From Opitutales bacterium (GTDB lineage Bacteria; Verrucomicrobiota; Verrucomicrobiia; Opitutales; UBA9783), in assembly GCA_017479315.1 (NCBI GenBank), contig JAFVCI010000002.1, positions 1-27,430 on the forward strand: DNA of 27,430 bases, read 5' to 3'. This document shows, in pieces, positions 1 to 26,794 of this stretch. How positions within the stretch are numbered: position 1 is the stretch's first letter; each line of letters opens with the position of its first letter. A model generated the notes under the pieces. That model saw only the letters and a program-made list of their open reading frames with translations, did not search any database and was not told where the DNA came from. The position numbers and the translations under genes were made by a program.

Positions 1-171
1 AAGGAATTGACCGATTTGTCGAAAATCGATCCCGGTCAGTTGGATCAAAGCCGCTTATTACAGGCACAGGTCAACCTGTCGCGTTGGCAACTGGCATCGC
101 AGCTGCTGTCAAATTTTGCTTCGGGTATCGCTTCCGGGCTGAAGAATACCGTTCAAAACGTAGGGAGGTAA
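1..171 (+). CDS. sctF: T3SS needle subunit SctF (YscF/PrgI-like), 3' part only; runs off the window start
   Basis: Frame +1 is open from base 1 to TAA at 169-171 and reads KELTDLSKIDPGQLDQSRLLQAQVNLSRWQLASQLLSNFASGIASGLKNTVQNVGR. The DP..LL..Q....W......S.......K..VQN C-terminal helix fits needle proteins, and it lies directly upstream of a TPR chaperone and sctI-J. Not in the ORF track. Confidence 0.75.
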   Translation, partial: KELTDLSKIDPGQLDQSRLLQAQVNLSRWQLASQLLSNFASGIASGLKNTVQNVGR

Positions 172-178
172 TTAAATC

Positions 179-622
179 ATGGATGAGGAGTTAAAAAAGG
201 TATTTCCGGGCGAATTGCTGGAACTGCTCGCCAATGTCGCCTTTGTCGGTATCGAACGCGGGCACTTCAAGGAAGCGCAGGAGATTTTTGCCGCATTGGT
301 CGAAGCCCGACCGCACAACATCAATTCCAAAATCGCGCAGGCGATGGGGGAATTGATGATGTGCAACGTGAAAGACGCCAATAAAATGCTGATGGCGTGT
401 CTCAAAGAAGATCCGAACAACGAAACGGTCAAGGGTTTTCTGGCGATTGCACTCAAAATGGGGCAAGCGGACGACCAAGCCGTCAGTTTATCGAAACACA
501 TTCTGAAAAACTGTAAAGACAACGATACGCGATCCATTGCGCAGGGAATTTTGGAAACCTGCAAAAAAACGCTGTCGTTGCATAAATTGCAGGCGGAACA
601 GTGCCAGAAAGTCGCCAATTAA
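179..622 (+). CDS. sctG: TPR-like T3SS needle chaperone (YscG/SsaH-like)
   Basis: 147 aa helical protein (LANVAFVGIERGHFKEAQEIFAALVEARP) with a TPR-like pattern. SD GGGAGG upstream. Position between needle and inner rod. Confidence 0.65.
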   Translation: MDEELKKVFPGELLELLANVAFVGIERGHFKEAQEIFAALVEARPHNINSKIAQAMGELMMCNVKDANKMLMACLKEDPNNETVKGFLAIALKMGQADDQAVSLSKHILKNCKDNDTRSIAQGILETCKKTLSLHKLQAEQCQKVAN

Positions 623-637
623 AGGAGGGAGACACGT

Positions 638-1060
638 ATGCCCATTGAAGGCGATATTTTAACCAACGCGTTCAGCAATTCCAATGCGCAGCAGGCATAT
701 CAGCAGTCGGGCAGTACGCTCGATGATATCAAAGCGGATTTGCCGAACCTGCTTCAGGATGAACCGCCGTTGGCGAACGAACAACCCGCTCCGCGCGTAC
801 CGTCCGCAGTTCATGAGGGAGCGGTCACACCCGGCGAAGCCATCTTGAATACCATCCAGAAGGTGTCGGACGCGCACGCCAACGCGATGCATGCGTTGCA
901 GGAAGTCACGAAGGGTCTGAACGATAAAGATACGTTCACCATGGCGGATGCCGCAAAAATGCAACTCGGCGTGATGAAATGGCAGTTGCAAAACGAACTG
1001 ACAAGCAAAGTTGCCGGTTCGGTTTCCAACGGCATTCAAACCTTAATGCGAAATCAGTGA
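638..1060 (+). CDS. sctI: T3SS inner rod protein SctI (YscI/HrpB2-like)
   Basis: C-terminus MQLGVMKWQLQNELTSKVAGSVSNGIQTLMRNQ matches the YscI/HrpB C-terminal pattern. Strong SD AAAGGAGG at 621-628. Immediately precedes sctJ. Confidence 0.85.
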   Translation: MPIEGDILTNAFSNSNAQQAYQQSGSTLDDIKADLPNLLQDEPPLANEQPAPRVPSAVHEGAVTPGEAILNTIQKVSDAHANAMHALQEVTKGLNDKDTFTMADAAKMQLGVMKWQLQNELTSKVAGSVSNGIQTLMRNQ

Positions 1061-1860
1061 TGAAGAAGCGCGCGTTGATTTCTTTAAGCCTGCTGTCGTT
1101 GGCGGGATGCGGACAACAAATCTTATATAAAGGTTTGCCGGAAAAAGAAGTCAACGACATGGCGGCAATTCTGTTGTCAAACGACATTGCCTGCACCAAA
1201 ATTGCCGGTGCGGAAAACACGTGGGATTTGACCGTCGACAAAACGCAGTTTTCTCAGGGCGTTCAGCTTCTCAACGAGGCGGGTTACCCGAAGGACACGT
1301 TTTCTTCGTTGGGCGAAGCGTTCAAAAAGTCGGGACTGGTTTCGTCGCCGACGGAGGAGCGCATTCGCTTCATGCATGCGCTTTCGGATGAGCTGGCGGA
1401 AACATTGACCCACATTCACGGCGTTGTTACCGCACGCGTTCACATTGTTCTGCCGGACAACGACCCGTACACGGAAAAATTTACGCCTTCATCGGCATCG
1501 GTTTTTATTTCTTACCTGCCGCAAATCAACTTGGACGATTGCTCGCGCGAAATCCGACAGCTGGTGACCAACAGCATTGAAGGGCTTTCCTACGACAAGG
1601 TTAATCTGTCGATGTTCCCAGCTTCCAATCCCAACGATCGCCTGCCGTTCGCAAACGCGAAAAAGCCGAACACGAAGGACATTTTCGGAGTAAAAATCAA
1701 TATCGCCTCGGTCGCTCCGTTCTTCACGCTTTTGGGCATCTTTTTCGTACTGGGGATTTTAAGCGGTATCGGCGTGCTGTTTCTGCTGAAACATTTCAAA
1801 AAGCAACCGACCGAACCCCAACCCTCAACCGAAACGAAAGACAACGGTGAACAACGGTGA
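1060..1860 (+). CDS. sctJ: T3SS inner-membrane ring lipoprotein SctJ (YscJ/HrcJ)
   Basis: ATG at 1060 overlaps the sctI stop (TGATG). Lipobox LAGC, LYKGLPEKEVNDM, ERIRFMHALSDELAETL, GVVTARVHIVLP, PSSASVFI and a C-terminal TM segment. The ORF-track start at 979 is likely too early. Confidence 0.96.
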   Translation: MKKRALISLSLLSLAGCGQQILYKGLPEKEVNDMAAILLSNDIACTKIAGAENTWDLTVDKTQFSQGVQLLNEAGYPKDTFSSLGEAFKKSGLVSSPTEERIRFMHALSDELAETLTHIHGVVTARVHIVLPDNDPYTEKFTPSSASVFISYLPQINLDDCSREIRQLVTNSIEGLSYDKVNLSMFPASNPNDRLPFANAKKPNTKDIFGVKINIASVAPFFTLLGIFFVLGILSGIGVLFLLKHFKKQPTEPQPSTETKDNGEQR

Positions 1861-2495
1861 CAACGGATGCAACACGATCGGAACGAATACGCCAAACGGT
1901 TGACCGCAATTTTCGGTTATCCGTTCATTCGTCGTTTTTGGATCCGTATCTGCCGAAGGCTCTGCACAACTTTACGGCACTGGAACATCCGCGGCTAAAA
2001 TTCAAAGTCTTCGCGCATCTTTTCCGTCATCTGAAATTAAAACCCCTTTCGGAGGAACTTTTGCAACACCCGTATTGTGATTTTTTAGACTTATCGCCGC
2101 AACAATGGAGCACGTTTAGGGATTTGCTCGGCGCGTTGTATTTTTTGGACGAAGTCAAAACAACGGTCAGTTATTTTAAGAAAAAGCTTCTGCTGGAACT
2201 GATTTTCGAAAAAGGCTACAATCTTGCCCTGCACCGCGGCAATTTATATGCGCCGATATTGAAAACCATCGCGATACCGCTCCGTAACGGCGAATTGGAG
2301 CAAAGAATTCATGCCGTCGGGAAATTTTTGACGGAATACCTGTGGACGCAACAGCCGGAACCGCTGATCCAACGCTTCGTTTTAAAGTTTAACAACAACT
2401 CGACGTGGAATTTCCAACACGTCATTGATCCGCACCTGCAACAACAGCTGTTTAACATTTGCCGACATCTTTTAAAAGAAACGGAGGTTTTTTGA
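1857..2495 (+). CDS. Probable SctK (YscK-like sorting platform adaptor)
   Basis: 212 aa helical ORF translationally coupled to sctJ (GTGA overlap) and followed by sctL. The assignment is positional because SctK is poorly conserved. Confidence 0.6.
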   Translation: MTTDATRSERIRQTVDRNFRLSVHSSFLDPYLPKALHNFTALEHPRLKFKVFAHLFRHLKLKPLSEELLQHPYCDFLDLSPQQWSTFRDLLGALYFLDEVKTTVSYFKKKLLLELIFEKGYNLALHRGNLYAPILKTIAIPLRNGELEQRIHAVGKFLTEYLWTQQPEPLIQRFVLKFNNNSTWNFQHVIDPHLQQQLFNICRHLLKETEVF

Positions 2496-2498
2496 AAA

Positions 2499-3134
2499 AT
2501 GCTGATTTTAAAAACTTCGAAACAATTCTGTCCCGCCGATCGCATCGTCCGTTGTGACGAATACATGCTGCACGCAAAGGCGGAAGAGATTTTGAAAATT
2601 GCACAAAAGAAGCAAAAAAAGCTCCTCGAGCACGCCGATGTCCAAATCAAGCTCATGAAGGAAAATGCGCAGTCCGAATGCGACGAGTTATTCAAGAACG
2701 CACAGGCAGAGAGTGAAAAGCAGTGTCAGCAAAAGATGACCGAAATGATTTTTTCGATGACGGAGAACGGCATTCGCTACTTTTCGTTGCTCGAACAAAC
2801 CTTCGTGCAAACATTAAAGGATCTGTTTCTGAAAATTCTCGGGGAAATTCCGCCCGAAGAACGCATGTATCAGCTGGTGAAGCAATCGATTAAGACCCTG
2901 TCGGAGGAGAAAACACTTCATATTTCGGTGCATCCCGATCAGCTGGTTCTGCTCAAAAGCAAAACGGACGAATTGATTGCGCAGCATCCGTCATTGAAAC
3001 ACATCGAAGTCGTTGCCGACAAAGCACTCCCGATCGATTCCTGCCTTCTGGAAACCGAGACGGGTATTTTGGATGCCGGCATCCCGTTGCAACTTGAAAC
3101 CCTCATCAAGGCCGTCCGGGCAAGTTTAAAGTAA
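2499..3134 (+). CDS. sctL: T3SS stator SctL (YscL/HrpE/FliH family)
   Basis: AEEILKIA coiled-coil N-terminus, LHISVHPDQ, and C-terminal [29 protein letters not shown] typical of FliH/YscL. Confidence 0.92.
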
Positions 3135-3138
3135 TCCT

Positions 3139-4464
3139 ATGGACAACCTTTTCCCAAACGGCTTCTTTACGCGCACCATCCAGGCAACGGCTTCCCTTGT
3201 GACCAAAGGCAAAGTCCTGCAGGTGGTCGGAAGCATGATTAAAGCTTACGTACCGGGCGTCAAAATCGGCGAACTGTGCACCCTGCATAATCCGAACGAC
3301 CAAAACGACGCGTTGGCGGAAGTTGTCGGGTTTGTCCAGGACGCGGCTCTGTTGACGCCTTTGGGCGAAGTCAACGGCATTTCTTCCTCCACACAGGTCA
3401 TTCCGTCAGGGCGCACCCACAGCGTTCCCGTGGGCATGGGATTGCTCGGTCGGGTGTTGGACGGATTGGGCAACGTCAGCGATGCGGACACCAAAGGACC
3501 CTTTGAACCGGAAACCTACTATCCCGTTTATGCCGATCCGCCGCCTCCCATGACCCGAAAGCCGATTGATACGCCGATTTCGCTCGGTTTGCGCGCGCTT
3601 GACGGTCTTCTCACTTGCGGCGAAGGACAGCGTCTTGGAATTTTTGCGGCGGCGGGCGGTGGGAAAAGTACGCTGTTGGCGCAAATCATCCGCAATACCG
3701 AAGCGGAAGTCACGATCCTGGCACTCATCGGTGAACGCGGACGCGAAGTGCGCGAATTCGTCGAAAAGGATTTGGGCGAAGAAGGGCTCAAACATTCGGT
3801 GTTGGTCATCGCAACTTCCGACCGTTCCTCCACGGAACGTTTAAAAGCCGCCTATGTTGCCACCAGCGTCGCCGAGTATTTTCGGGACAAAGGGAAGAAA
3901 GTCCTTCTCTTAATGGACAGCGTAACGCGTTTCGGGCGTGCACAGCGCGAAATCGGACTTGCGGCTGGAGAACCGCCGACGCGACGCGGATTTCCGCCGT
4001 CGGTGTTTGCAACCTTGCCGAAGCTGATGGAACGTGCCGGGCAATCGGAGAAGGGCTCGATTACCGCGCTGTACACCATTCTCGTGGAAGGCGATGACAT
4101 GACGGAACCGATCGCAGACGAAACGCGCTCTATCCTGGACGGGCATATTATCCTTTCGCGCAAACTGGCGTCCGCGAACCATTACCCCGCGATTGATGTT
4201 CTTGCAAGCATCAGTCGTTGCATGAACGCCATCGTCGAAAAAGAACACAAAGCGGCGGCGGGAAAATTCCGAAGTTTGCTTGCCAAATACCAAGAGGTGG
4301 AATTGCTGTTGCGCATCGGCGAATACAAAAAGGGCAACGATGCCGAAACGGATGAAGCCATCGATAAAATGCCGCAGTTGAACGAATTCCTGCGGCAGGG
4401 CTTGACGGAGAAAACTTCCTTTAAAGAGACGATCGAACGCATGATCCAAATCGTCAATGCATGA
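3139..4464 (+). CDS. sctN: T3SS ATPase SctN (YscN family)
   Basis: Walker [25 protein letters not shown], Walker [55 protein letters not shown]. Confidence 0.98.
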
Positions 4465-4943
4465 GTGCCAAATACGAACTCCGGGATATTCTGCGCATTC
4501 GCAATCGTCGCAAGGATGCCGCCGAAACAGCACTGCTAAAGGCCAAACAGGCATTGCGCGAAGCGGAACAATTTCTGAAGGAACAGCAGGATAAAGAGGC
4601 GGATTTTATTCAAAAAAAGCCGAAGTTTATTCAAAGAATTTACGAACTGGCACTTGAGAAAGTTAAGTTCAGGCGCAATTACATGGACATCATCGCCTTC
4701 AAGCTCGGAAAGCTGGACGAACATCAAATGAAACTTGCCGTCGAAGTCGAAAAAGCTCATAATAAATGCAACGAGGCGTATGAGAAAGTTCGAGAGTGCG
4801 CACAGGCTTTGACGCAGGCGCGAAAGGAAATGGATAAGATCGAAGAGCACAAAAAGATTTGGAAGGAAGACATGCGGCGTTTGGATGAATTTACGCAGGA
4901 TAAGGAACTGGAAGATTTCAAAACAAAGGCACACCATGAATGA
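4461..4943 (+). CDS. sctO: T3SS stalk SctO (YscO/FliJ-like)
   Basis: 160 aa charged coiled coil ([12 protein letters not shown]...) coupled to sctN by an ATGA overlap; canonical position after the ATPase. Confidence 0.85.
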
Positions 4944-6285
4944 AGAGCTTTCGATCGGAACGGATACCGTCGGTGAAACCGATGTTTTGTCGGTTTCCGC
5001 GACCGATGCGGATGAAAATGTTGTCGTTGACGTAAAGCATTTAACGGTCGATCCTGAAAACGTCACCCGTTTTCGGGAGCAATTACATTCCAAGTCTCAA
5101 TCAAAAGAGACAAAGAACATTTCGACCGTCGAAGGCGAAACAAAACGCGAAATATCCGAAAGTCTCGTTTTAAAGCATTCCCGCAAAGACTTTTACGAAA
5201 AATCGATGGAATTCGATGTAACAAAGAGCATTTCGACCGCCGAAGGCGAAACAAAACGCAATGCATCCGAAAAGCCCGTTTCAAAGCATTCGGCACCGAA
5301 CGAACGGACACTTTTCGGAAACAACGGCAGAAATACTCCGCCTTTTGTTGCCGGCAAAGCTCACCCCTGTCCGTCCAAAAACCAAAGTATCGACAATTTC
5401 CGCAAAGACTTTTACGAAAAACCGATGGAATTCGATGTAAATTTCCAAAGTTCCGCACCTAAAGCTTCCAGTGGTACGATGGCACGTACTTCGGGAATTT
5501 CCGACGCCGCGAGTACTTCAATACACACACGGAATTTGAGGGCGGTTACGAAAGAACTTTCTTCGGGAATACCCTCCGCCGAAACGTTTCATGCTCCCGA
5601 AAACCGTACAGCCCCGCATCCATACGGCGGGAACGACACGGTTTCGGCAAACGCATCGGCAACCAAACCGACGGGGACGAAACAGCAAAATGTTCCCGAA
5701 ACCTCAAAACCACTTTCAAAAACCGATAACACCGCATCAACGGCTGAACCTCTCTCAAAAATAAAGACCCGCGAACATCCGCATTCGCCTGAAAGTGCTT
5801 CCGATATGCACAAAACCGCCGTTTGGGAGACTATTCCGTTTTTGCGAACAACCGTCGAAACGACTGCTCCCGTACAGGAGCCGACCGCCACGCAGGCATC
5901 GAAATCGCAGGCAATGCTTATTGCGCAACAAATACGCGACCACATTATCGATCGAATTTTGGTTTCTTCGAGCGCCCTCAACACTCAACACACCGTGACG
6001 GTTCGGCTGTCGCCGCGGCTGTTGCGGGACACGGAGGTGCAATTCACGCAGAACGGCACTTCGCTGGACATACAGCTGGTGTCGCAAAACAAGGACAGCG
6101 TTCAATTCCTGCAACAATATCAATCGGATTTACAAACGTACCTGCAAGGAGAACTCAAAACGTACCGCGCGATTTCGGTGCGGGTTCCGTCATCGCAGGC
6201 CTCTGCGGAACTTGCGCAACCGCACGACGGACGCTCGCGCAACCGTTTCGATTATCAATCGGCAGATGAGGAGGAAACAACATGA
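4936..6285 (+). CDS. sctP: T3SS needle-length ruler SctP (YscP/FliK-like)
   Basis: Likely start ATG 4936 (MNEELS), 449 aa. Long S/T/P/K-rich disordered region followed by a FliK/T3S4-like C-terminal domain (VTVRLSPRLLRDTEVQFTQNGTSLDIQLVS...LQQYQSDLQTYL, GRSRNRF). Lies between sctO and sctQ. Confidence 0.85.
   Translation: MNEELSIGTDTVGETDVLSVSATDADENVVVDVKHLTVDPENVTRFREQLHSKSQSKETKNISTVEGETKREISESLVLKHSRKDFYEKSMEFDVTKSISTAEGETKRNASEKPVSKHSAPNERTLFGNNGRNTPPFVAGKAHPCPSKNQSIDNFRKDFYEKPMEFDVNFQSSAPKASSGTMARTSGISDAASTSIHTRNLRAVTKELSSGIPSAETFHAPENRTAPHPYGGNDTVSANASATKPTGTKQQNVPETSKPLSKTDNTASTAEPLSKIKTREHPHSPESASDMHKTAVWETIPFLRTTVETTAPVQEPTATQASKSQAMLIAQQIRDHIIDRILVSSSALNTQHTVTVRLSPRLLRDTEVQFTQNGTSLDIQLVSQNKDSVQFLQQYQSDLQTYLQGELKTYRAISVRVPSSQASAELAQPHDGRSRNRFDYQSADEEETT
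5110..5440 (+). repeat. In-frame internal duplications in sctP (A-B-A'-spacer-B')
   Basis: A at 5110-5180 and A' at 5221-5291 are 111 nt (37 codons) apart (KNISTVEGETKREISESLVLKHS vs KSISTAEGETKRNASEKPVSKHS). B at 5181-5221 and B' at 5400-5440 are ccgcaaagacttttacgaaaaaYcgatggaattcgatgtaa, 41 nt with 1 mismatch (RKDFYEK[S/P]MEFDV). Confidence 0.93.
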
Positions 6286-7328
6286 CGGAACGCTTCAAAC
6301 CGAGCATTTCGTTACCGCCGGCGTACGTACACCTGGGGAACGTCTGGCGCAAACCGTTGCCGTTTAAGTATCGGGAAAACGAATGTTTCTTCAAAATCGG
6401 CGGCTGTCAAACCTTCACGCGCGGCGCGGTATTAAGTTATATTTGGAGAGAAAAAACCGTCTACTTCTTCGCGCCCGAACAGGGTTTGTGCGAATTTCTG
6501 GAGCCCAAATTGGCGGGGCTGGACATCAATGCGCTCGGGAAAGAGTTTTTAAATTTATTTCTGGAAACGTTGCGCGAGGATATTTGCGGGATTTTTCTGC
6601 AATTTCATGAAACTTTAAAAATTCGCGAAAGCCACTGGAGCATTCAAACCATTCCGAACACCCTCTATTTCGATTGGTACAACGCCGAAAAGAACCTTTA
6701 TCGCCTGTACATTATCGAAGACGGCGACAATGCCGCACCGCAACTGATGGAGAAAATTTATCAAAAGAACGGTTCTTCGGAAGGCTTGAACGGCAATGCG
6801 TGCATTTTCCCGTTCCGCTTATTGACGGGGCAGGCGCGTTTGACGGTTGAAGAACTCAAATCGCTGCGCGTCGGGGACATTATCTTGTCGCAGACACCGC
6901 GCAATCGCGTCAAATTTTACTGCGGGAAAGCCGTGTTTTTTGCCGAAAAGAAGGAACAACAATTTTGCGTTACCGGTTTGCTTATGGAAGAAGAAAATCA
7001 TGATTTACCCGTCGGTGTCATGCCCGACGACGATGCCGAATTATCCGAGCTCGAAGGTGATAATGCGCTTGCCGAAGGATCGGCGGAACCCGAAAAAGCC
7101 GCGTTCCCGATGGAACAACTGCCCGTGGTGATTGCCTTCGAAGCGGGCAAAAAGGAAATTACCTTCGAACAGCTGCAACAGGTGCACGAAGGTTACACGT
7201 TTGAATTGGACCAAAAGCCCGACGAACAGGTGCAAATTCTGGCGAACGGGCACTGCATCGGACAGGGCGAGTGGGTCCAAATCAACGACCGCCTCGGCGT
7301 GCGCATCACGCACTTATCGCTTAAATAA
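6282..7328 (+). CDS. sctQ: T3SS cytoplasmic ring protein SctQ (YscQ/HrcQ)
   Basis: Two SPOA-type segments (FRLLTGQARLTVEELKSLRVGDIIL and LPVVIAFEAG...ILANGHCIGQGEWVQINDRLGVRIT). ATGA overlap with sctP. Confidence 0.92.
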   Translation: MTERFKPSISLPPAYVHLGNVWRKPLPFKYRENECFFKIGGCQTFTRGAVLSYIWREKTVYFFAPEQGLCEFLEPKLAGLDINALGKEFLNLFLETLREDICGIFLQFHETLKIRESHWSIQTIPNTLYFDWYNAEKNLYRLYIIEDGDNAAPQLMEKIYQKNGSSEGLNGNACIFPFRLLTGQARLTVEELKSLRVGDIILSQTPRNRVKFYCGKAVFFAEKKEQQFCVTGLLMEEENHDLPVGVMPDDDAELSELEGDNALAEGSAEPEKAAFPMEQLPVVIAFEAGKKEITFEQLQQVHEGYTFELDQKPDEQVQILANGHCIGQGEWVQINDRLGVRITHLSLK

Positions 7329-7373
7329 TGAACGCTTAAATAGTGAAGCCCTAAACCCGCAAAGCCGCTTCCC

Positions 7374-8153
7374 ATGCCGGACACGAGCCCTTTCATCTAC
7401 GATTCCGCCGGGATCATGATCCTGCTCGTAACGTTGGCACTCGTGCCGTTCGTTGCGATGATGGTCACGTCCTTCATTAAACTGGTGGTGGTGATGAATT
7501 TGTTGCGCCAGGCAATGGGATTGCAACAGGTTCCGCCGAACATGGTGCTCAACGGCTTGGCGATTGTTTTGACAATTTACATCATGGCACCGACGTTGCA
7601 GGAAAGCATTCAACGCGTTACCGAAGCCAATACGGTACTTGAAAATCGGAAAGCGCACCCCGATACCTTCAAACTGCCGCCGTCTATGCAACCGTTCGCA
7701 AAAAAGCAAAGTTCCGATTGGCTTGCCAATTTATTTCCTGCGGCGCAAACGGTTCGAAACAAAGCGGACGAACTCGGGGCGATTTTTAATTACGTCAAAC
7801 AACCGCTGACGGACTTCTTAACCAAACATTCAACCCCGAAACACAACGCGTTTTTCAAGTCCATCGCCAAGAAATTATGGCCGAAAGCCTATTTGGAAGA
7901 TTTGGACGATTCAAGCTTATTGCTTATCGTTCCGTCGTTCGTTTTGTCCGAACTAACCGCGGCATTTGAAATCGGATTTCTGATTTATTTGCCGTTTATC
8001 GTCATCGATTTGGTGGTTTCGAACGTTCTGCTCGCCATGGGCATGATGATGGTCTCGCCGATGACCATTTCGCTGCCGTTCAAACTGATGCTGTTCGTAC
8101 TCGTCAACGGCTGGGATAAAATCGTCGAAGCGTTGGCGTTGACGTACCGATGA
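7374..8153 (+). CDS. sctR: T3SS export gate protein SctR (YscR/FliP family)
   Basis: LALVPFVAMMVTSFIKLVVVMNLLRQAMGLQQVPPNMVLNGLA, SELTAAFEIGFLIYLPFIVIDLVVSNVLLAMGMMMVSPMTISLPFKLMLFVLVNGW. Confidence 0.97.
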   Translation: MPDTSPFIYDSAGIMILLVTLALVPFVAMMVTSFIKLVVVMNLLRQAMGLQQVPPNMVLNGLAIVLTIYIMAPTLQESIQRVTEANTVLENRKAHPDTFKLPPSMQPFAKKQSSDWLANLFPAAQTVRNKADELGAIFNYVKQPLTDFLTKHSTPKHNAFFKSIAKKLWPKAYLEDLDDSSLLLIVPSFVLSELTAAFEIGFLIYLPFIVIDLVVSNVLLAMGMMMVSPMTISLPFKLMLFVLVNGWDKIVEALALTYR

Positions 8154-8284: not shown

Positions 8285-8524
8285 ATGAAGGGTAAATGTT
8301 TCGTATTAGGGATTGTGACAGCGGTTGTTGGAAAGTCGATTTGCTTTGCGGATTATGTTGCGGAGCAAATTGTTCATCCGCGAACGGGACAGCAGACGGT
8401 CTTTTGGGGAGATGCCTCAAAAGGGAAGGACGCTTACATCGTCAGTTACGACGAGAAGAGTCAAAAATTTTATCTCGAAAAAATCGAGAAAAACAAACCG
8501 TCCTCGAAAAGCGATTCCGAATAA
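8285..8524 (+). CDS. Small hypothetical protein with putative Sec signal peptide (79 aa)
   Basis: SD GAGGGAG ending 7 nt before the ATG. MKGKCFVLGIVTAVVGKSICFA/DY resembles a signal peptide, followed by a polar beta-rich body. Lies inside the hairpin-rich region, so it could be spurious. Confidence 0.55.
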   Translation: MKGKCFVLGIVTAVVGKSICFADYVAEQIVHPRTGQQTVFWGDASKGKDAYIVSYDEKSQKFYLEKIEKNKPSSKSDSE

Positions 8525-8958
8525 CCCGACAACATCTCGGTTCGGTTGAACTCAACGCAACGGTCTGCGCACCGTTTGGGTGTTGTTGGATGGGCAAGTC
8601 TGCTCAAACAAGGCGACAGTCGGTTTTTGACGATGTTCCGTAGGCGTTCTCGTCCTCATCGTTAGTTACGGTGAGAGGGTGTGCGTCTGCCTCGCCGGAA
8701 GGGGAAGGATAGCCTCTTTGTCGAGGATGAAGATAAAGAAAGTTGCCGTGTTTCAGCTCAAACGAGCACAATACGGCGGTTGTGTGTCTCGCAAAACCGA
8801 TATTTCGCAAGTCTGCGGTATCGGGGTGTTGGGACACGCCGTTGTTTTATAGTAACAGAACGATAAACCCGGATGCCGTTCGGATTGGTTTATCGGCAGA
8901 AATTTATCCGAAGCAGGTGTTTTCGGTCGGTTTTTGTGTTTTTTCCGACTGAATTTTT
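8337..8958 (+). ncRNA. Candidate large structured RNA of unknown family (boundaries approximate; may start near 8255-8280)
   Basis: At least 12 near-contiguous stems found by eye, many with G-U pairs that form only on the plus strand. Examples: 8337-8351/8358-8372 (15 bp, 5 G-U), 8400-8409/8415-8424, 8526-8537/8578-8589, 8741-8752/8770-8781, 8782-8791/8830-8839, 8861-8869/8887-8895. Loop motifs repeat and the region ends in a terminator-like hairpin. Confidence 0.6.
8922..8958 (+). terminator. Possible intrinsic terminator closing the structured region
   Basis: 9-bp stem ttcggtcgg (8922-8930) / ccgactgaa (8945-8953) followed by ttttt. The loop is long (14 nt, T-rich), which is atypical. Confidence 0.4.
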
Positions 8959-13619: not shown

Positions 13620-14861
13620 ATGAGAACGGAATTAAAATCTCTCTTAAGATCGTGCGCCTTTTCGGCAGCTGTCTTACTTACAGGAGCCTCGGCGCGCGCG
13701 GATGAGTACCTATTGGCAGTCGTTCCTGTAGAAAACGACAAAGATCAATTTCAAATTCGTTGCATGAATATCGATAAACGTCAAACAGATGCGCTGTCTG
13801 TCACTCAAAACCTATGCGAAAAGCGGGTTTCTTTGGGAACATCCTCACACGAGGTTATGGTCAATTTAAATACACCCGAAGACCATACAAGTTTCAGTTT
13901 TGAGATTGGTTCCTTCAAATTTTGTTACACATTCAGTTCCTATGGCGGTGTTATCGAAATTACGGGCGGGGATGAGAGGGATTCTTTGCAGATACAAAAC
14001 CAGGTGGACAATCAGACTTTTAAAATTGACACAATTAAAGCAAACATGCTCTCGATTAAGAGAGGCAGCTATAAGACGGAAGTAATCAGGATGCGTAATT
14101 GTAATGCCAATACGGTTTTGCTTACGGATTACGATGTGTGTAATAGAACAGGGATACCGCTTTTGCAAACGAGCGGGGAAAATTACATACACAATCTGAT
14201 TTTGAATGGTGCTCATATCTCGAATGATGGCACGATGAAAGTGGATGGCATTTTTTGTAATACTAATGGTTCGATTACGGGTTGCTTTCCCGCAATTCTC
14301 CCGGAGACGAGCCATTCGCAAAATGCTTTTATTCTCCGTGATAAAGATTTAATAAATAATGGTTCCGCTCTGAAGGAAGTTGACTCGACATCCAAAAGTT
14401 GTACTTTCTTTAGCGACATTTCCGACCCTCGCGTTAAACGTAATGACTCATGTTATGAACTGCCTGAGGAAGGTTGTTACAGGTTTATACTTTTGGGCAA
14501 TTTTAAGTGTAGTAAAGAGAGATGTGGATATGCCCTTTTGAGGGAGCAGGATTTCCATCCGGTAGCGCACTTATCAGAAGTTTTCGGAACATATTTGAGT
14601 GCTTTTGAGCCGCCGGTAAGCGAGAAGTATACAAGAGAGGCACTTGTAAGTCTCTTCAAAAACGTAAAATCCGTGAACTTACAGATAGGGAAGCAGGATT
14701 TGAACCATACTTTTTATCAACCATGTGAATTGAAATGTGCTTCCATGGGACATGCGCTTGTTATTATACATGAAGATGATTTGCACCAAGAACCACACCA
14801 AGAAGAAAGCTCCCCTTTTTTCCCAAATGAAATAAAGAACGGACTTATACATCAGCGTTGA
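13620..14861 (+). CDS. Hypothetical exported protein (413 aa), lower GC
   Basis: Long open frame with an N-terminal signal peptide (MRTELKSLLRSCAFSAAVLLTGASARA/DE). Cys-rich. About 40% GC in sampled rows versus about 50% or more in flanking genes. No family recognised. Confidence 0.8.
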   Translation: MRTELKSLLRSCAFSAAVLLTGASARADEYLLAVVPVENDKDQFQIRCMNIDKRQTDALSVTQNLCEKRVSLGTSSHEVMVNLNTPEDHTSFSFEIGSFKFCYTFSSYGGVIEITGGDERDSLQIQNQVDNQTFKIDTIKANMLSIKRGSYKTEVIRMRNCNANTVLLTDYDVCNRTGIPLLQTSGENYIHNLILNGAHISNDGTMKVDGIFCNTNGSITGCFPAILPETSHSQNAFILRDKDLINNGSALKEVDSTSKSCTFFSDISDPRVKRNDSCYELPEEGCYRFILLGNFKCSKERCGYALLREQDFHPVAHLSEVFGTYLSAFEPPVSEKYTREALVSLFKNVKSVNLQIGKQDLNHTFYQPCELKCASMGHALVIIHEDDLHQEPHQEESSPFFPNEIKNGLIHQR

Positions 14862-23033: not shown

Positions 23034-23795
23034 TCACTTTCTCTTTTTCAACTTCTTCTGCTTTATTTCCTCTTTGCTTTCTTCATCAAAAATTATCTTA
23101 TTACGGTTTGTTATTATTTTCTTTTCCATTTCTTGATCTGACTCACTTTGTCCCGATTCGCAATCCTTACCAAATTCAAGGCGATACAGGAGTCGACGAT
23201 CCCACTTTAGGTCTTTCACCGGATCCTTATTTATAATCAAAACTTTACACTTTTTATCATCACCTATATCTTCCGCACTCTTATCACCCTCTTTTTTGCC
23301 TTCAACCTCTGCCTCTGGGGCATTCCTCTTTTTATTCAAAAATTTATCCTTTTCACCATCACCCTCTCTTTTGCCTTTAGCCTTTTTTGGAAGATACTTC
23401 TCTTTCAACCCTCGTACATAACGACTGAGACGTTTTACTTCACTTGCATCATTCCTCAAAAGAAAAGGATCGATGTGTTTTCTCTCCTTACCACCTCCAT
23501 CGTATTTATACTCAGTCAGTAATGAGGCTACTCGTTCATTCGGAACACTCAAAGGCACGAGAATGCATTTGTAATTCTCCGACGGAATCAGAAATACAGT
23601 TTGAGAGCAAAGTTCCCAACTATGATGCATCCCATTTTCACACGCATCGCAAGGTCTATCGCCCGTCTCTGTACACATCTCATCTTGCTTATGTTCGTGT
23701 CCGAAACTGCATTTCCAGCAAAACGCGCCTTCAAGGCTCCCTGCAATCATACTGCCACCAAGCAGAACGACTTTGCTTAAACTTTTCGCATCCAT
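23034..23795 (-). CDS. Hypothetical exported Cys/His-motif protein, paralog 1, Lys/Glu-rich tail
   Basis: 253 aa. SD GGAG upstream. Signal-peptide-like N-terminus (…LEGAFC/W). Aligns by eye with the upstream paralog over about 130 aa. Low GC. Confidence 0.85.
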   Translation of the reverse strand: MDAKSLSKVVLLGGSMIAGSLEGAFCWKCSFGHEHKQDEMCTETGDRPCDACENGMHHSWELCSQTVFLIPSENYKCILVPLSVPNERVASLLTEYKYDGGGKERKHIDPFLLRNDASEVKRLSRYVRGLKEKYLPKKAKGKREGDGEKDKFLNKKRNAPEAEVEGKKEGDKSAEDIGDDKKCKVLIINKDPVKDLKWDRRLLYRLEFGKDCESGQSESDQEMEKKIITNRNKIIFDEESKEEIKQKKLKKRK

Positions 23796-23809
23796 ACAAA
23801 ATACTTCTC

Positions 23810-24496
23810 CTATTTTTTATCCTTCTTTTCCTGTAATTTTCTTTTCAAAGATCTCTCCTTTATCGCCAATTTTTCTGCTTCTTCTCGCCTCTTAATCTCC
23901 TCCATTTTTTTCCTCTCTTCTTCCTTTTCCGCATCGGACATTGGCACTCCTATTTTCTTTTTTTCTTGTTGTAAAAAAGTGCTAATTTTTTCCAATCGCC
24001 GTCGTTTTTTTTCTTCTGACTCTTGTACCTCTTTTCCCTTTTGGAACTGTCCGCGAAGCTTTTTGTTTTCTTCCGAAAACTTCTCTTTCAACTCTTGTAC
24101 TCGAGATTCAAGGCGTCGTACCTCGATGTTTTGATCAGACTCGATTTCCGGGCAATACTCTGCGTACCGTTCGTCTCTTCGTACATTACTGCATCCGTAT
24201 TCATACCATAATTCGGCGATTTTTCTCTCCGGAACTCTGTACGGAAGAATAACATACTTTATACCTTCCGATCGGAAACCGAACACCGATTGAGGACAAA
24301 CTTCATACCCACTGTGATAATCCGAAGTACACATGGGATTATCACAGGCTCGTTCCCACTGCCAGCAACAAAAACATGCTTCATCCTTTTTATGTTCAAC
24401 TCCTCTACTGCATTTCCAGGCAAACGCACTCTCGATGTTCACCGCAGGAATACTGATACCGAATAAGCCGATTTTTATGAAACTTTTTGCATCCAT
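23810..24496 (-). CDS. Hypothetical exported Cys/His-motif protein, paralog 2, Lys/Glu/Arg-rich tail
   Basis: Start placed at ATG 24496 (MDAKS) by homology with paralog 1. Signal-peptide-like N-terminus (…IESAFA/W) and the shared WKCS.G.EHK.DE.C motif. Confidence 0.85.
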   Translation of the reverse strand: MDAKSFIKIGLFGISIPAVNIESAFAWKCSRGVEHKKDEACFCCWQWERACDNPMCTSDYHSGYEVCPQSVFGFRSEGIKYVILPYRVPERKIAELWYEYGCSNVRRDERYAEYCPEIESDQNIEVRRLESRVQELKEKFSEENKKLRGQFQKGKEVQESEEKKRRRLEKISTFLQQEKKKIGVPMSDAEKEEERKKMEEIKRREEAEKLAIKERSLKRKLQEKKDKK

Positions 24497-24628
24497 TTCC
24501 TCATGCAAAACATTTTTTTAGAAAAAAAGAAACAAAAAAAATACAAAAAATTCCGCAGAAAGAAAACAGCGGCATTTTTTTCTCAAAAAAACGAAACAAG
24601 TAAAGTCAGAAGGATAACAGCAAGCACC

Positions 24629-26794
24629 TTACCGAAAATCCGTCGGGTCTACATCCAAAATATCGATCACATTCGACGGCATTTGAAAACGTTGGCGCAG
24701 GTTTTGAAGTTGCGGAAGAAAAGAAGTTTCGTGCGGTACCAAATACAGCAGGTGCATGCGCCAATAACGATGGGCTTTGTTTATATAAGGCACGGCAGGA
24801 CCCATAATTTCAACGTCCTCGGATACGTTTTTTCGCAAAAAACCGTTCCATTGGTCGACGACGTAGCGAAGCGTTTTTTCGGAGAAACTTCGAAACAAAT
24901 GTCTGACCATGCGACGAAACGGCGGATAACGATGCTGTTTACGCAAAGCCGTTTCGCGATCCAAAAATCCGACGGTATCGTGTTCCAACGCGTACCGCAC
25001 CCAATCGGCTTCCGGCGAAAACGTTTGAAGCACAACTTCCCCGGGACGTTCGGCACGTCCGGCGCGCCCGCTCACTTGCACTAATAATTGAAACAAACGT
25101 TCCGAGGAACGAAAATCTTCCGCCGCGGTGATTAAATCCGCCTGAATGACGCCGACCAGCGTTAAATGCGGAAAATCCAGCCCTTTCGCCACCATCTGCG
25201 TGCCGATGAGAATATCGTACTTTCTCTGCAAAACCGCTTCATACCAATCGTTCTCTTTCGAAGCCGCATCCGAATCGAGTCGCAAAATGCGCGCGCGCTT
25301 GAAAAGTTGCTTCAAACAGGCTTCAATGCGTTGCGTTCCGAGACCGACGCTGAGTTTCATCGGCGAACGGCAGGCGGGACATCGGTCATACGCCGTAACG
25401 CGCGTATCGCAGATATGACACCGCAAGGTACGGTCGGTTTTGTGAAAAACCAAATAACTCTTACAGTTCGGACATTCCAAGCGCACGCGACACTTGGGGC
25501 AGTAGTAGTACGGTGCATATCCGCGGCGATTAAGGAATAACAGAGCCTGTTCGCCGCGATCCAGGCAGGCACTTAATTTTTCACGCAACAACGCCGACAG
25601 CACGAAGGAACCTTCAAAATTCGGCTTTTCGTAGCACATATCCGCCAAGGAAACCTTCGGTAACGGTTGCCCCGACGGGCGTTGTGTCAACATATGAAGT
25701 TCATAGTGCCCGCAACGAACTTCGTTCCAACTTTCCACGGACGGCGTTGCGGAACCCAAAACGCACGGTGCGTTGTTCAAACACGCGCGGTACAACGCCA
25801 AGTCGCGCCCGTGGTAGCGCGGGGTTTCCGATTGTTTGTAGGAAGGTTCGTGTTCCTCGTCGACGACGACCAAGCCGAGGTGTTTGAAAGGCAAAAACAC
25901 CGCGGAACGCGTTCCCAAAATCACATCCATCGTTCCGTTCAACGCTCCCTGCCACACCCGCATACGTTCGCCGTCCGAAAGCAGACTGTGCCAAAGTCCG
26001 ACGCGAATACCGTACGCCGATAAACGTAACTTTATTTTTGCCAGCGCCTGAGCGGAAAGCAGGATTTCGGGCACCAAATATAATGTCTGAAATTCGAGGT
26101 TTTTCGCTTCCGCCGTCAACGCATGATAAAGTTCGGTTTTTCCCGATCCCGTCACGCCGAACAGCAGATGCGCCGAAAATTTTCCTGCCCGTAACGCTGC
26201 CCGAAGTTTCTCGAAAACGCTTTCCTGCTCGTCGGTCAACGGCAACAGTGTATCGTTACTTTGAATTTCCGCCAGTGGTTGTTCGCAACGTTCGACATAT
26301 TTTTTTTCAATTAAACGTTTTAAAAGCGGCGTTCCTTTCGGAAAGTTTTTGCGAAATTCCGCTTCCGAGACAAAAGGATGTTGTTCGATCCAACGATAGA
26401 CAGATAACTGTTGCACGGCGCGCGACGAAAAAAGCGCCGTTACGTCGGTGATATGAAGAAAAAATTCTTTTTTAAATACTTTGCCGATGCGAAGAAACGC
26501 CGGCAGAGCCGTTTCGAGTACGGTACCGAGCGGGCACATGTAATAATCCGCAACCCGTTGAATGATCGCAAGGTTATCCTCACGTACCACGGGTGTTTCG
26601 TACAAAGCCCCTTCAACGGGAACCAACGCATAATCCGATTCGGGTGCGATGTTCGAAACCTTCGTCACCAGCCCTACCGTTCGTCGCCCTCTGACGCGAA
26701 CCTGCACCAACATGCCGACTTGGAGCGGTTGCGGTGCGGTATAAGTTAAAGCGCGGTCGACCGAACGCAACGGCAAAACATCGACATAAAACAT
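24629..26794 (-). CDS. priA: Primosomal protein N' (replication restart helicase)
   Basis: Walker A LFGVTGSGKTE, GTRSAVFLP, VVDEEHE, LGSATPS, FLNRRGYAP, four CxxC pairs and GRAGR. Confidence 0.98.
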   Translation of the reverse strand: MFYVDVLPLRSVDRALTYTAPQPLQVGMLVQVRVRGRRTVGLVTKVSNIAPESDYALVPVEGALYETPVVREDNLAIIQRVADYYMCPLGTVLETALPAFLRIGKVFKKEFFLHITDVTALFSSRAVQQLSVYRWIEQHPFVSEAEFRKNFPKGTPLLKRLIEKKYVERCEQPLAEIQSNDTLLPLTDEQESVFEKLRAALRAGKFSAHLLFGVTGSGKTELYHALTAEAKNLEFQTLYLVPEILLSAQALAKIKLRLSAYGIRVGLWHSLLSDGERMRVWQGALNGTMDVILGTRSAVFLPFKHLGLVVVDEEHEPSYKQSETPRYHGRDLALYRACLNNAPCVLGSATPSVESWNEVRCGHYELHMLTQRPSGQPLPKVSLADMCYEKPNFEGSFVLSALLREKLSACLDRGEQALLFLNRRGYAPYYYCPKCRVRLECPNCKSYLVFHKTDRTLRCHICDTRVTAYDRCPACRSPMKLSVGLGTQRIEACLKQLFKRARILRLDSDAASKENDWYEAVLQRKYDILIGTQMVAKGLDFPHLTLVGVIQADLITAAEDFRSSERLFQLLVQVSGRAGRAERPGEVVLQTFSPEADWVRYALEHDTVGFLDRETALRKQHRYPPFRRMVRHLFRSFSEKTLRYVVDQWNGFLRKNVSEDVEIMGPAVPYINKAHRYWRMHLLYLVPHETSFLPQLQNLRQRFQMPSNVIDILDVDPTDFR

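Follow-up and report, generated by a model that had tools for sequence, protein, structure and literature searches.

A dispersed, conserved injectisome in Opitutales (Verrucomicrobiota) with genomes of about 1 Mb

Nearly all members of several families of Opitutales (Verrucomicrobiota) with genomes of about 1 Mb keep a dispersed and conserved injectisome, a non-flagellar type III secretion system (T3SS), whose central gene block lies in the 27,430-nucleotide stretch of DNA analysed here (the window). The window is the entire contig C53 of an Opitutales metagenome-assembled genome (MAG) of 0.85 Mb in 114 contigs (77% complete, 0.49% contamination, 48% GC). The reading that we favour, with a probability of roughly 0.85, is that this block is the central operon of a non-flagellar T3SS that is complete and functional, ancient, vertically inherited and dispersed, and that would inject effectors into a eukaryotic host. 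T3SS of this type in Verrucomicrobia were already published in 2011-2012: non-flagellar T3SS were described in Verrucomicrobia, along with a ‘Desulfo’ family (Abby and Rocha, 2012; PMC3459982), and the T3SS genes of Verrucomicrobium spinosum were attributed to exchange with Desulfovibrio vulgaris-like bacteria (Kamneva et al., 2012; PMC3542564). V. spinosum is reported to deploy its T3SS against invertebrates (PMC3681970). An earlier note on this DNA, made from the sequence alone, had placed the novelty in the family and the lineage of the system; the family was thus known in the phylum before, and it is the lineage context that is new. The literature searched on T3SS in Opitutales, Nucleococcus and reduced Verrucomicrobia contained no description of a T3SS in these reduced Opitutales.

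An ortholog of the T3SS ATPase SctN was found in 79 of the 301 Opitutales genomes sampled. It is present in all 18 genomes of the window's own family (f1), in 16 of the 17 of family f4, in 17 of the 18 of f8 and in 13 of the 14 of f20, all of them 0.7-1.4 Mb in size, as well as in several small singleton Opitutales families, and in none of the 18 genomes of each of several large-genome Opitutales families (2-5 Mb). In a phylum-wide sample of 401 genomes, 23 (counting that of the window) carry the ortholog; they belong to several classes and mostly measure 2-6 Mb. The system is patchy in Verrucomicrobiota of free-living size (about 5% of the phylum sample), whereas it is almost fixed in the reduced Opitutales. 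Across f1, SctN is 79-92% identical, compared with 60-78% for ClpX, which suggests that the system is under strong purifying selection and that SctN is more constrained than ClpX.

Positions 1-8153 of the window hold eleven co-directional genes of a non-flagellar T3SS, most of them identified in profile scans with Pfam and NCBIfam models, in the order sctF (3′ end only)-G-I-J-K-L-N-O-P-Q-R (Table 1). The order agrees with that given in the earlier note, with sctF reduced to a 3′ fragment and sctK recognised through profile comparison, and the ATPase motif claimed there is present in SctN. The junctions across the block measure -59 to +45 nt and mostly -4 to +7 nt (those listed are -4, +3, +4, -4, -59, and -4 nt); these short or overlapping junctions therefore indicate a translationally coupled operon. 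Its products would comprise the needle, a needle chaperone, the inner rod, the inner-membrane ring, the sorting platform, the stator, the ATPase, the stalk, the ruler, the cytoplasmic ring (C-ring), and the first subunit of the export gate.

Table 1. Coordinates of the T3SS genes in the window and the evidence for their assignment.
Feature	Position	Strand	Evidence
sctF, needle subunit	1..171	+	last 56 codons and stop; 5′ part beyond contig end
sctG-like TPR protein, needle co-chaperone candidate	179..622	+	PF09613 HrpB1_HrpK 34.2 bits (cut-off 29.3), TPR_19
sctI, inner rod	638..1060	+	PF17001 T3SS_basalb_I 37.3 bits (cut-off 32.4)
sctJ, inner-membrane ring lipoprotein	1060..1860	+	TIGR02544 207.4 bits (cut-off 162), PF01514
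sctK, sorting-platform protein	1857..2495	+	position and hhalign profile comparison
sctL, stator	2499..3134	+	TIGR02499 79.6 bits (cut-off 78.7), PF06188
sctN, ATPase	3139..4464	+	NF005391 750 bits (cut-off 657); Walker motif at residue 168
sctO, stalk	4461..4943	+	PF07321 YscO 51.8 bits (cut-off 28.8)
sctP, needle-length ruler	4885..6285	+	C-terminal HpaP (28.3 bits, cut-off 23.8)/YscP domain
sctQ, cytoplasmic ring (C-ring)	6282..7328	+	TIGR02551 118.9 bits (cut-off 100.8), FliMN_C
sctR, export-gate subunit, last gene of block	7374..8153	+	PF00813 FliP 221.5 bits

Several of these assignments draw on relatives. The frame-1 translation of positions 1-171 shares 98% identity with residues 53-108 of a 108-amino-acid (aa) protein in a genome of the same genus (G002), where the gene sits between a 70-aa YscE-sized gene and the gene of a tetratricopeptide repeat (TPR) protein, as in yscE-F-G. 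That 108-aa protein matches the needle model only weakly (PF09392, E 0.014), while its size, position and conserved C-terminus fit a needle subunit. The sctF of the earlier note is accordingly a real gene, although it is present in the window only as its last 56 codons and in frame 1; a 63-aa open-ended open reading frame (ORF) at 3-194 was rejected as sctF, being spurious and in a different frame. The adjoining TPR gene occupies the slot of yscG and of the TPR gene on the plasmid pDV of D. vulgaris. For sctJ, the longest ORF starts at 979 (979-1860), but translation from 1060 gives a signal peptide with the lipobox LAGC (MKKRALISLSLLSLAGC), and 1060 is most likely the start. The ORF at 1857-2495 had no Pfam or NCBIfam match; a profile built from 11 orthologues aligned (hhalign) to YscK with 86% probability (E 4.8e-6) and to the pDV gene between sctJ and sctL with 98.5% (E 2.5e-15).

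The remaining parts of the machine are encoded elsewhere in the same genome. The genes sctS-T-U lie on contig C43, flanked by lptF/G and by a radical-SAM gene and dnaN, and SctU has an intact NPTH site. The sctV gene is at the end of contig C49, beside a HepT/MNT pair and fabH. SctC is encoded on contig C12 (4787-6931), between rplM and the prepilin peptidase gene pilD, with uppP also in the flanks, and aligns over about 530 aa with SctC of D. vulgaris (238 bits) and with YscC (187 bits). The genome has two further secretins, one on C20 (beside an ATPase of a type II secretion system or type IV pilus) and one on C17; neither was accepted as SctC, as they match in the C-terminal domain only (44-53 bits) and stand in contexts like those of type II secretion and type IV pili. 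The N-terminal 307 aa of SctD lie at the end of contig C17 and are 81% identical to the G002 orthologue, in which YscD domains were found; this places C17 directly before position 1 of the window. In relatives, the full-length needle-like gene is preceded by the 70-aa YscE-sized gene and by a 520-aa SctD, and from this gene order sctE presumably lies just upstream together with sctD, across the contig break. The export apparatus (SctR, S, T, U, and V) and the ATPase complex (SctN, L, and O) are all present in the genome, as are the SctJ and SctD rings and the secretin SctC, by which an injectisome is recognised. The core injectisome set is thus complete, with its genes distributed over four or more loci that are surrounded by housekeeping genes.

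The relatives of SctN confirm the host. At 71-99% identity they are Opitutales/Puniceicoccales bacteria, many of them from termite-gut bins, and the sequence of one such locus is the same as in an f1 genome. This agrees with the call of Verrucomicrobiota made earlier on the basis of housekeeping genes, of which the L33 gene (15176-15328, minus strand) and priA (24629-26794, minus strand) are both present in the window. Among more distant systems, tblastn against plasmids gave identities of 70.3% to YscN, 70.0% to AscN, 69.8% to the ATPase of D. vulgaris pDV, 55-60% to rhizobial Rhc, 57% to Ralstonia Hrp2, 50% to Pantoea, and 43.5% to Shigella SpaL. In the PDB, SctN scores highest against a T3SS ATPase (535 bits), with EscN (429) and FliI (358) next.

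Trees of SctN were built with IQ-TREE (68 sequences) and FastTree (156 rows); the two were consistent, and neither held chlamydial or myxococcal SctN. In the IQ-TREE phylogeny, the SctN of the window falls within f1 (100/99), which is then joined to the termite-gut families f4, f8 and f20 (86/88). These stand in a clade dominated by Verrucomicrobiota (89/81; 95 with FastTree) that takes in Brevifollis, Verrucomicrobiales, Methylacidiphilales, and rumen and gut MAGs, and which is joined, with moderate support (88/86), to a clade of Desulfovibrionaceae and Planctomycetota. The supergroup that also includes Yersinia, Aeromonas and Photorhabdus as well as Bordetella and Achromobacter has support of 93/97, and Rhc (99/98), Hrp2, SPI-1 and FliI lie outside it. 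FliI of Bacillus, Escherichia coli and Opitutales relatives forms a separate clade (100/99), and FliI was not found in the window's own genome (77% complete), in keeping with the non-flagellar nature that had been proposed. An exclusive clade with Ysc proper (Yersinia, Aeromonas, and Photorhabdus), a group chosen after the tree had been seen, was marginally rejected (log-likelihood difference 33.5; approximately unbiased (AU) test, p = 0.028). The system thus appears, from its ATPase, to be a verrucomicrobial branch beside the Desulfovibrionales type, within a Ysc-Bsc-Desulfovibrionales supergroup. The earlier assignment to the Ysc family can be upheld in the broad sense, given the 70% identity to YscN and the supergroup, and has to be given up where it would unite the system with Ysc proper alone; its closest kin are found in other Verrucomicrobiota and next in Desulfovibrionaceae and Planctomycetota, and not in Yersinia or Bordetella.

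The affiliation of the host with the Planctomycetes-Verrucomicrobia-Chlamydiae (PVC) group raises the alternative of a T3SS of chlamydial type that descends from an ancestor of the whole PVC group, with which the scattered loci, as in Chlamydiae, would agree, and likewise the best NCBIfam match of the TPR protein, to the CdsG family (54.7 bits, below the cut-off of 170). SctN, however, reaches only 320 bits on NF004578 (cut-off 604), which we take to be the chlamydial SctN model, compared with 750 bits on NF005391 (cut-off 657); it is nested among Ysc, Bsc and Desulfovibrio sequences, and large-genome Verrucomicrobia hold the same system as a single cluster in Ysc/Desulfo order. The 10 sequences scanned among the 150 best 50%-cluster SctN representatives gave generic SctN/EscN-like models below cut-off and none that was chlamydial. 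We regard a common PVC origin as very improbable. The chlamydial system (cds) has in common with that of the reduced Opitutales a PVC host with a reduced genome, genes scattered among housekeeping genes and a presumed obligate association with eukaryotes, but it belongs to another family by model score and identity to YscN, and its cluster is broken at different points; the parallel would thus be one of genome architecture and lifestyle, not of common descent of the system.

Gene order points to the same neighbourhood as the SctN tree. The fused order C-D-E-F-TPR-I-J-K-L-N-O-P-Q-R, seen in the window together with G002 and a second relative (G010), matches pDV, a Desulfovibrionaceae chromosome and Brevifollis; in the window's genome, sctC has been relocated away from the block. 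On pDV of Nitratidesulfovibrio vulgaris Hildenborough, the block sctC-D-(E)-F-TPR-(I)-J-(K)-L-N-O-P-Q-R likewise ends at sctR, with sctS-T-U elsewhere, but there the genes form two neighbouring segments within a single region of the plasmid, whereas those of the window's genome are chromosomal and occupy at least four loci. In addition, pDV has sctW, sycN, X/Y-like genes, a SycD chaperone and sctB, whereas SctW was not detected in the window's genome. The Ysc/Psc/Asc systems of Yersinia, Pseudomonas and Aeromonas share the components SctC, D, F, G, I-L, and N-V (an SctE-like gene being seen only in the relatives), and Ysc shares the orders D-E-F-G-…-I-J-K-L and N-O-P-Q-R. On pYV, however, yscN-U and yscA-L are separate operons and yopR (yscH) separates G from I, whereas the window has no gene between sctG and sctI; pYV also has YopN/TyeA, YscX/Y, LcrV/G, YopB/D and the pilotin YscW. 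The bsc locus of Bordetella, to which the earlier note had likened the arrangement in preference to the chlamydial one, has a contiguous J-K-L-N-O-P-Q-R run and an SctN that is 67% identical, but R-S-T-U-…-C continue in the same locus and its SctN falls in a separate Burkholderiales clade. The block matches pDV better than bsc; by its model score, the system is not of the chlamydial type. V. spinosum and other large-genome Verrucomicrobiota (Brevifollis, Verrucomicrobiales, and rumen and gut MAGs) share the SctN clade at 71-75% identity; Brevifollis has V-C-D…R-S-T-U in one locus with SctW adjoining, whereas in the reduced Opitutales the genes are dispersed.

The composition of the genes and their distribution argue for an old system. 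The codon-usage distance of the 11 sct genes (0.092) equals that of 601 other ORFs (0.088, p = 0.89), and their GC content is 0.494, compared with 0.488. Within f1, the topologies of ClpX and SctN are identical, and the grouping of f4, f8 and f20 is recovered by both, although the single-gene ClpX tree gives no resolution between families and one of its rows (L149), with a branch length of 10, is an ORF taken in the wrong frame. The neighbours of the D..R block vary by genus, with tig-clpPX in one and grpE-dnaJ-recA in another. A recently acquired island or the cargo of a mobile element might be considered, since mobility is common among T3SS clusters, the nearest references with a name are carried on plasmids (pYV and pDV), and the GC content at third codon positions of the sct genes lies slightly above the genome mean (0.596 vs. 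0.546, p = 0.02). This explanation is strongly disfavoured by the agreement in codon usage and overall GC, by the ortholog in every sampled f1 genome with a tree that agrees with ClpX, and by the dispersal of sct genes among housekeeping genes; furthermore, a Pfam scan of the large ORFs of the window showed no integrase, tRNA-flank or transposase domains. It is hardly credible, too, that misbinning or a chimeric assembly has fused a T3SS fragment from a proteobacterium or desulfobacterium to verrucomicrobial DNA, as the fragmentation of the MAG into 114 contigs and its incompleteness might suggest: the same sct block followed by tig-clpP-clpX-rsmE occurs in an independent genome of the same genus (L097), the SctN and the ClpX of the contig each fall in f1, and the estimated contamination is low. 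The favoured reading is that the system entered, or arose in, the Verrucomicrobiota long before family f1 existed and has probably been inherited vertically since, a single ancestral cluster having been broken up during genome reduction. The earlier proposal of an old, ameliorated transfer into a PVC lineage is supported as to age and amelioration, the codon-usage check that it called for revealing no difference in distance or GC; the ancient transfer may have run in either direction.

With regard to function, the machine would deliver putative effectors to a eukaryotic host, for which a protist is the likeliest candidate, and this role may be why reduced lineages cannot lose it. The eukaryote-associated lifestyle suggested in the earlier note is plausible given genomes of about 1 Mb. 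The near-universal retention in the reduced Opitutales therefore implies a dependence on eukaryotic host cells, and the injectisome marks the Opitutales of about 1 Mb as tied to such cells. Candidatus Nucleococcus is an intranuclear protist symbiont with a MAG of about 1 Mb (unpublished), and the members of the ‘Nucleococcus cluster’ are protist endosymbionts (PMC8204192). Tentatively, and with more doubt than confidence, at least four well-sampled and several singleton Opitutales families (about 70 species-level genomes of 0.7-1.4 Mb) might be viewed as a second chlamydia-like PVC radiation of obligate, perhaps intranuclear, symbionts of eukaryotes, in which the injectisome would have been kept vertically as indispensable, its genes dispersed and SctW lost, with secretion ungated to suit permanent host contact.

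A number of points weigh against the favoured reading. The gatekeeper SctW (PF07201, HrpJ) was not found in the window's own genome (77% complete) or in six reduced genomes (91-96% complete), although the model matched the positive controls, namely pYV, pDV, Brevifollis and a 5 Mb rumen verrucomicrobial genome; tblastn with these four gatekeepers was also negative in the reduced genomes. No tip or translocon family passed the threshold in the genomes scanned, gatekeeper, tip and translocon each having been sought with one model, from which divergence may hide homologues. The needle is assigned from weak profile matches and synteny, and the comparison with the chlamydial system draws on model scores, the trees having no chlamydial or myxococcal SctN. 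The effectors and the eukaryotic host are putative, and the link to the termite-gut Nucleococcus cluster comes from the names of relatives, not from 16S placement.

These gaps allow for another view, in which the apparatus is kept but is not a contact-dependent injector, and instead secretes constitutively to the surroundings or the host cytoplasm, or has another role such as adhesion. The lack of SctW in seven reduced genomes despite matching controls, and of any tip or translocon match over threshold, would fit it. However, needle, inner rod, ruler, secretin and a chaperone-like TPR_3 gene beside large unannotated proteins are present, gatekeepers and translocators diverge fast and may escape a single Pfam model, and the constraint on SctN exceeds that on ClpX. 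We consider a non-injecting apparatus unlikely, and injection of a eukaryotic host remains the reading that we prefer. The value of the finding is in ecology and evolution and not in a new mechanism, the T3SS type being known in the phylum: besides Chlamydiae, these bacteria provide a second PVC lineage in which to follow the fate of a T3SS during genome reduction, including cluster break-up, possible gatekeeper loss and the effector repertoire, and the SctN of this clade is a simple genomic marker for such symbionts in metagenomes from gut, rumen and the environment.

Two loci with large proteins that lack a family match may be leads to the secreted proteins. In the window's genome, a TPR_3 gene (SycD/LcrH-like, resembling class-II chaperones) lies at C111:9552-10106, within a locus at G000:C111:7177-10106 that has a 790-aa neighbour. 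In G010, the corresponding locus (C1:110903-114826) has neighbours of 676 and 440 aa, the latter with a sub-threshold SseC match (E 0.0037). Both are possible translocator or effector operons. In the window itself, two adjacent ORFs of 253 and 232 aa on the minus strand (23034-24508), with no Pfam match, occupy the stretch of lowest GC (0.39, GC skew -0.40), and would be natural effector candidates for the T3SS.

Downstream of sctR, the window continues with a small ORF followed by DoxX, tig, clpP, clpX, rsmE, L33, mgtE, folD, a GT9 heptosyltransferase gene and priA. A 79-aa ORF and a non-coding spacer (8285-8958) take the place of sctS after sctR, the true sctS being on contig C43. Between rsmE and the L33 gene lies a 413-aa ORF on the plus strand (13620-14861) with no Pfam match and a GC content of 0.40-0.45. 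The HepT-like/nucleotidyltransferase (MNT) pair directly downstream of sctV (G000:C49:11472-12234) is a toxin-antitoxin pair. In translation, SctP holds two copies of a repeat of about 35 aa (…STxEGETKR…RKDFYEKxMEFDV…); its length varies by genus (466 aa in the window compared with 362 aa in G010), and needles of different length may be the consequence.

Flagellar FliI is kept in five f1 genomes of about 1 Mb (G005:C1:31039-32277 and G018:C1:354956-356170, as well as G007, G014 and G017), where it is 48-49% identical to SctN and forms a separate clade, while the genus of the window and several other genera have none. Flagella are therefore lost piecemeal within f1 while the injectisome stays. 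In one f1 genus, an F1-ATPase-like match (G009:C8:12604-13791, G013:C1:108091-109356 and G016:C5:4582-5769) lies in a 771-aa frame with one in-frame TAG, which could represent read-through from one gene into its neighbour, or else recoding.

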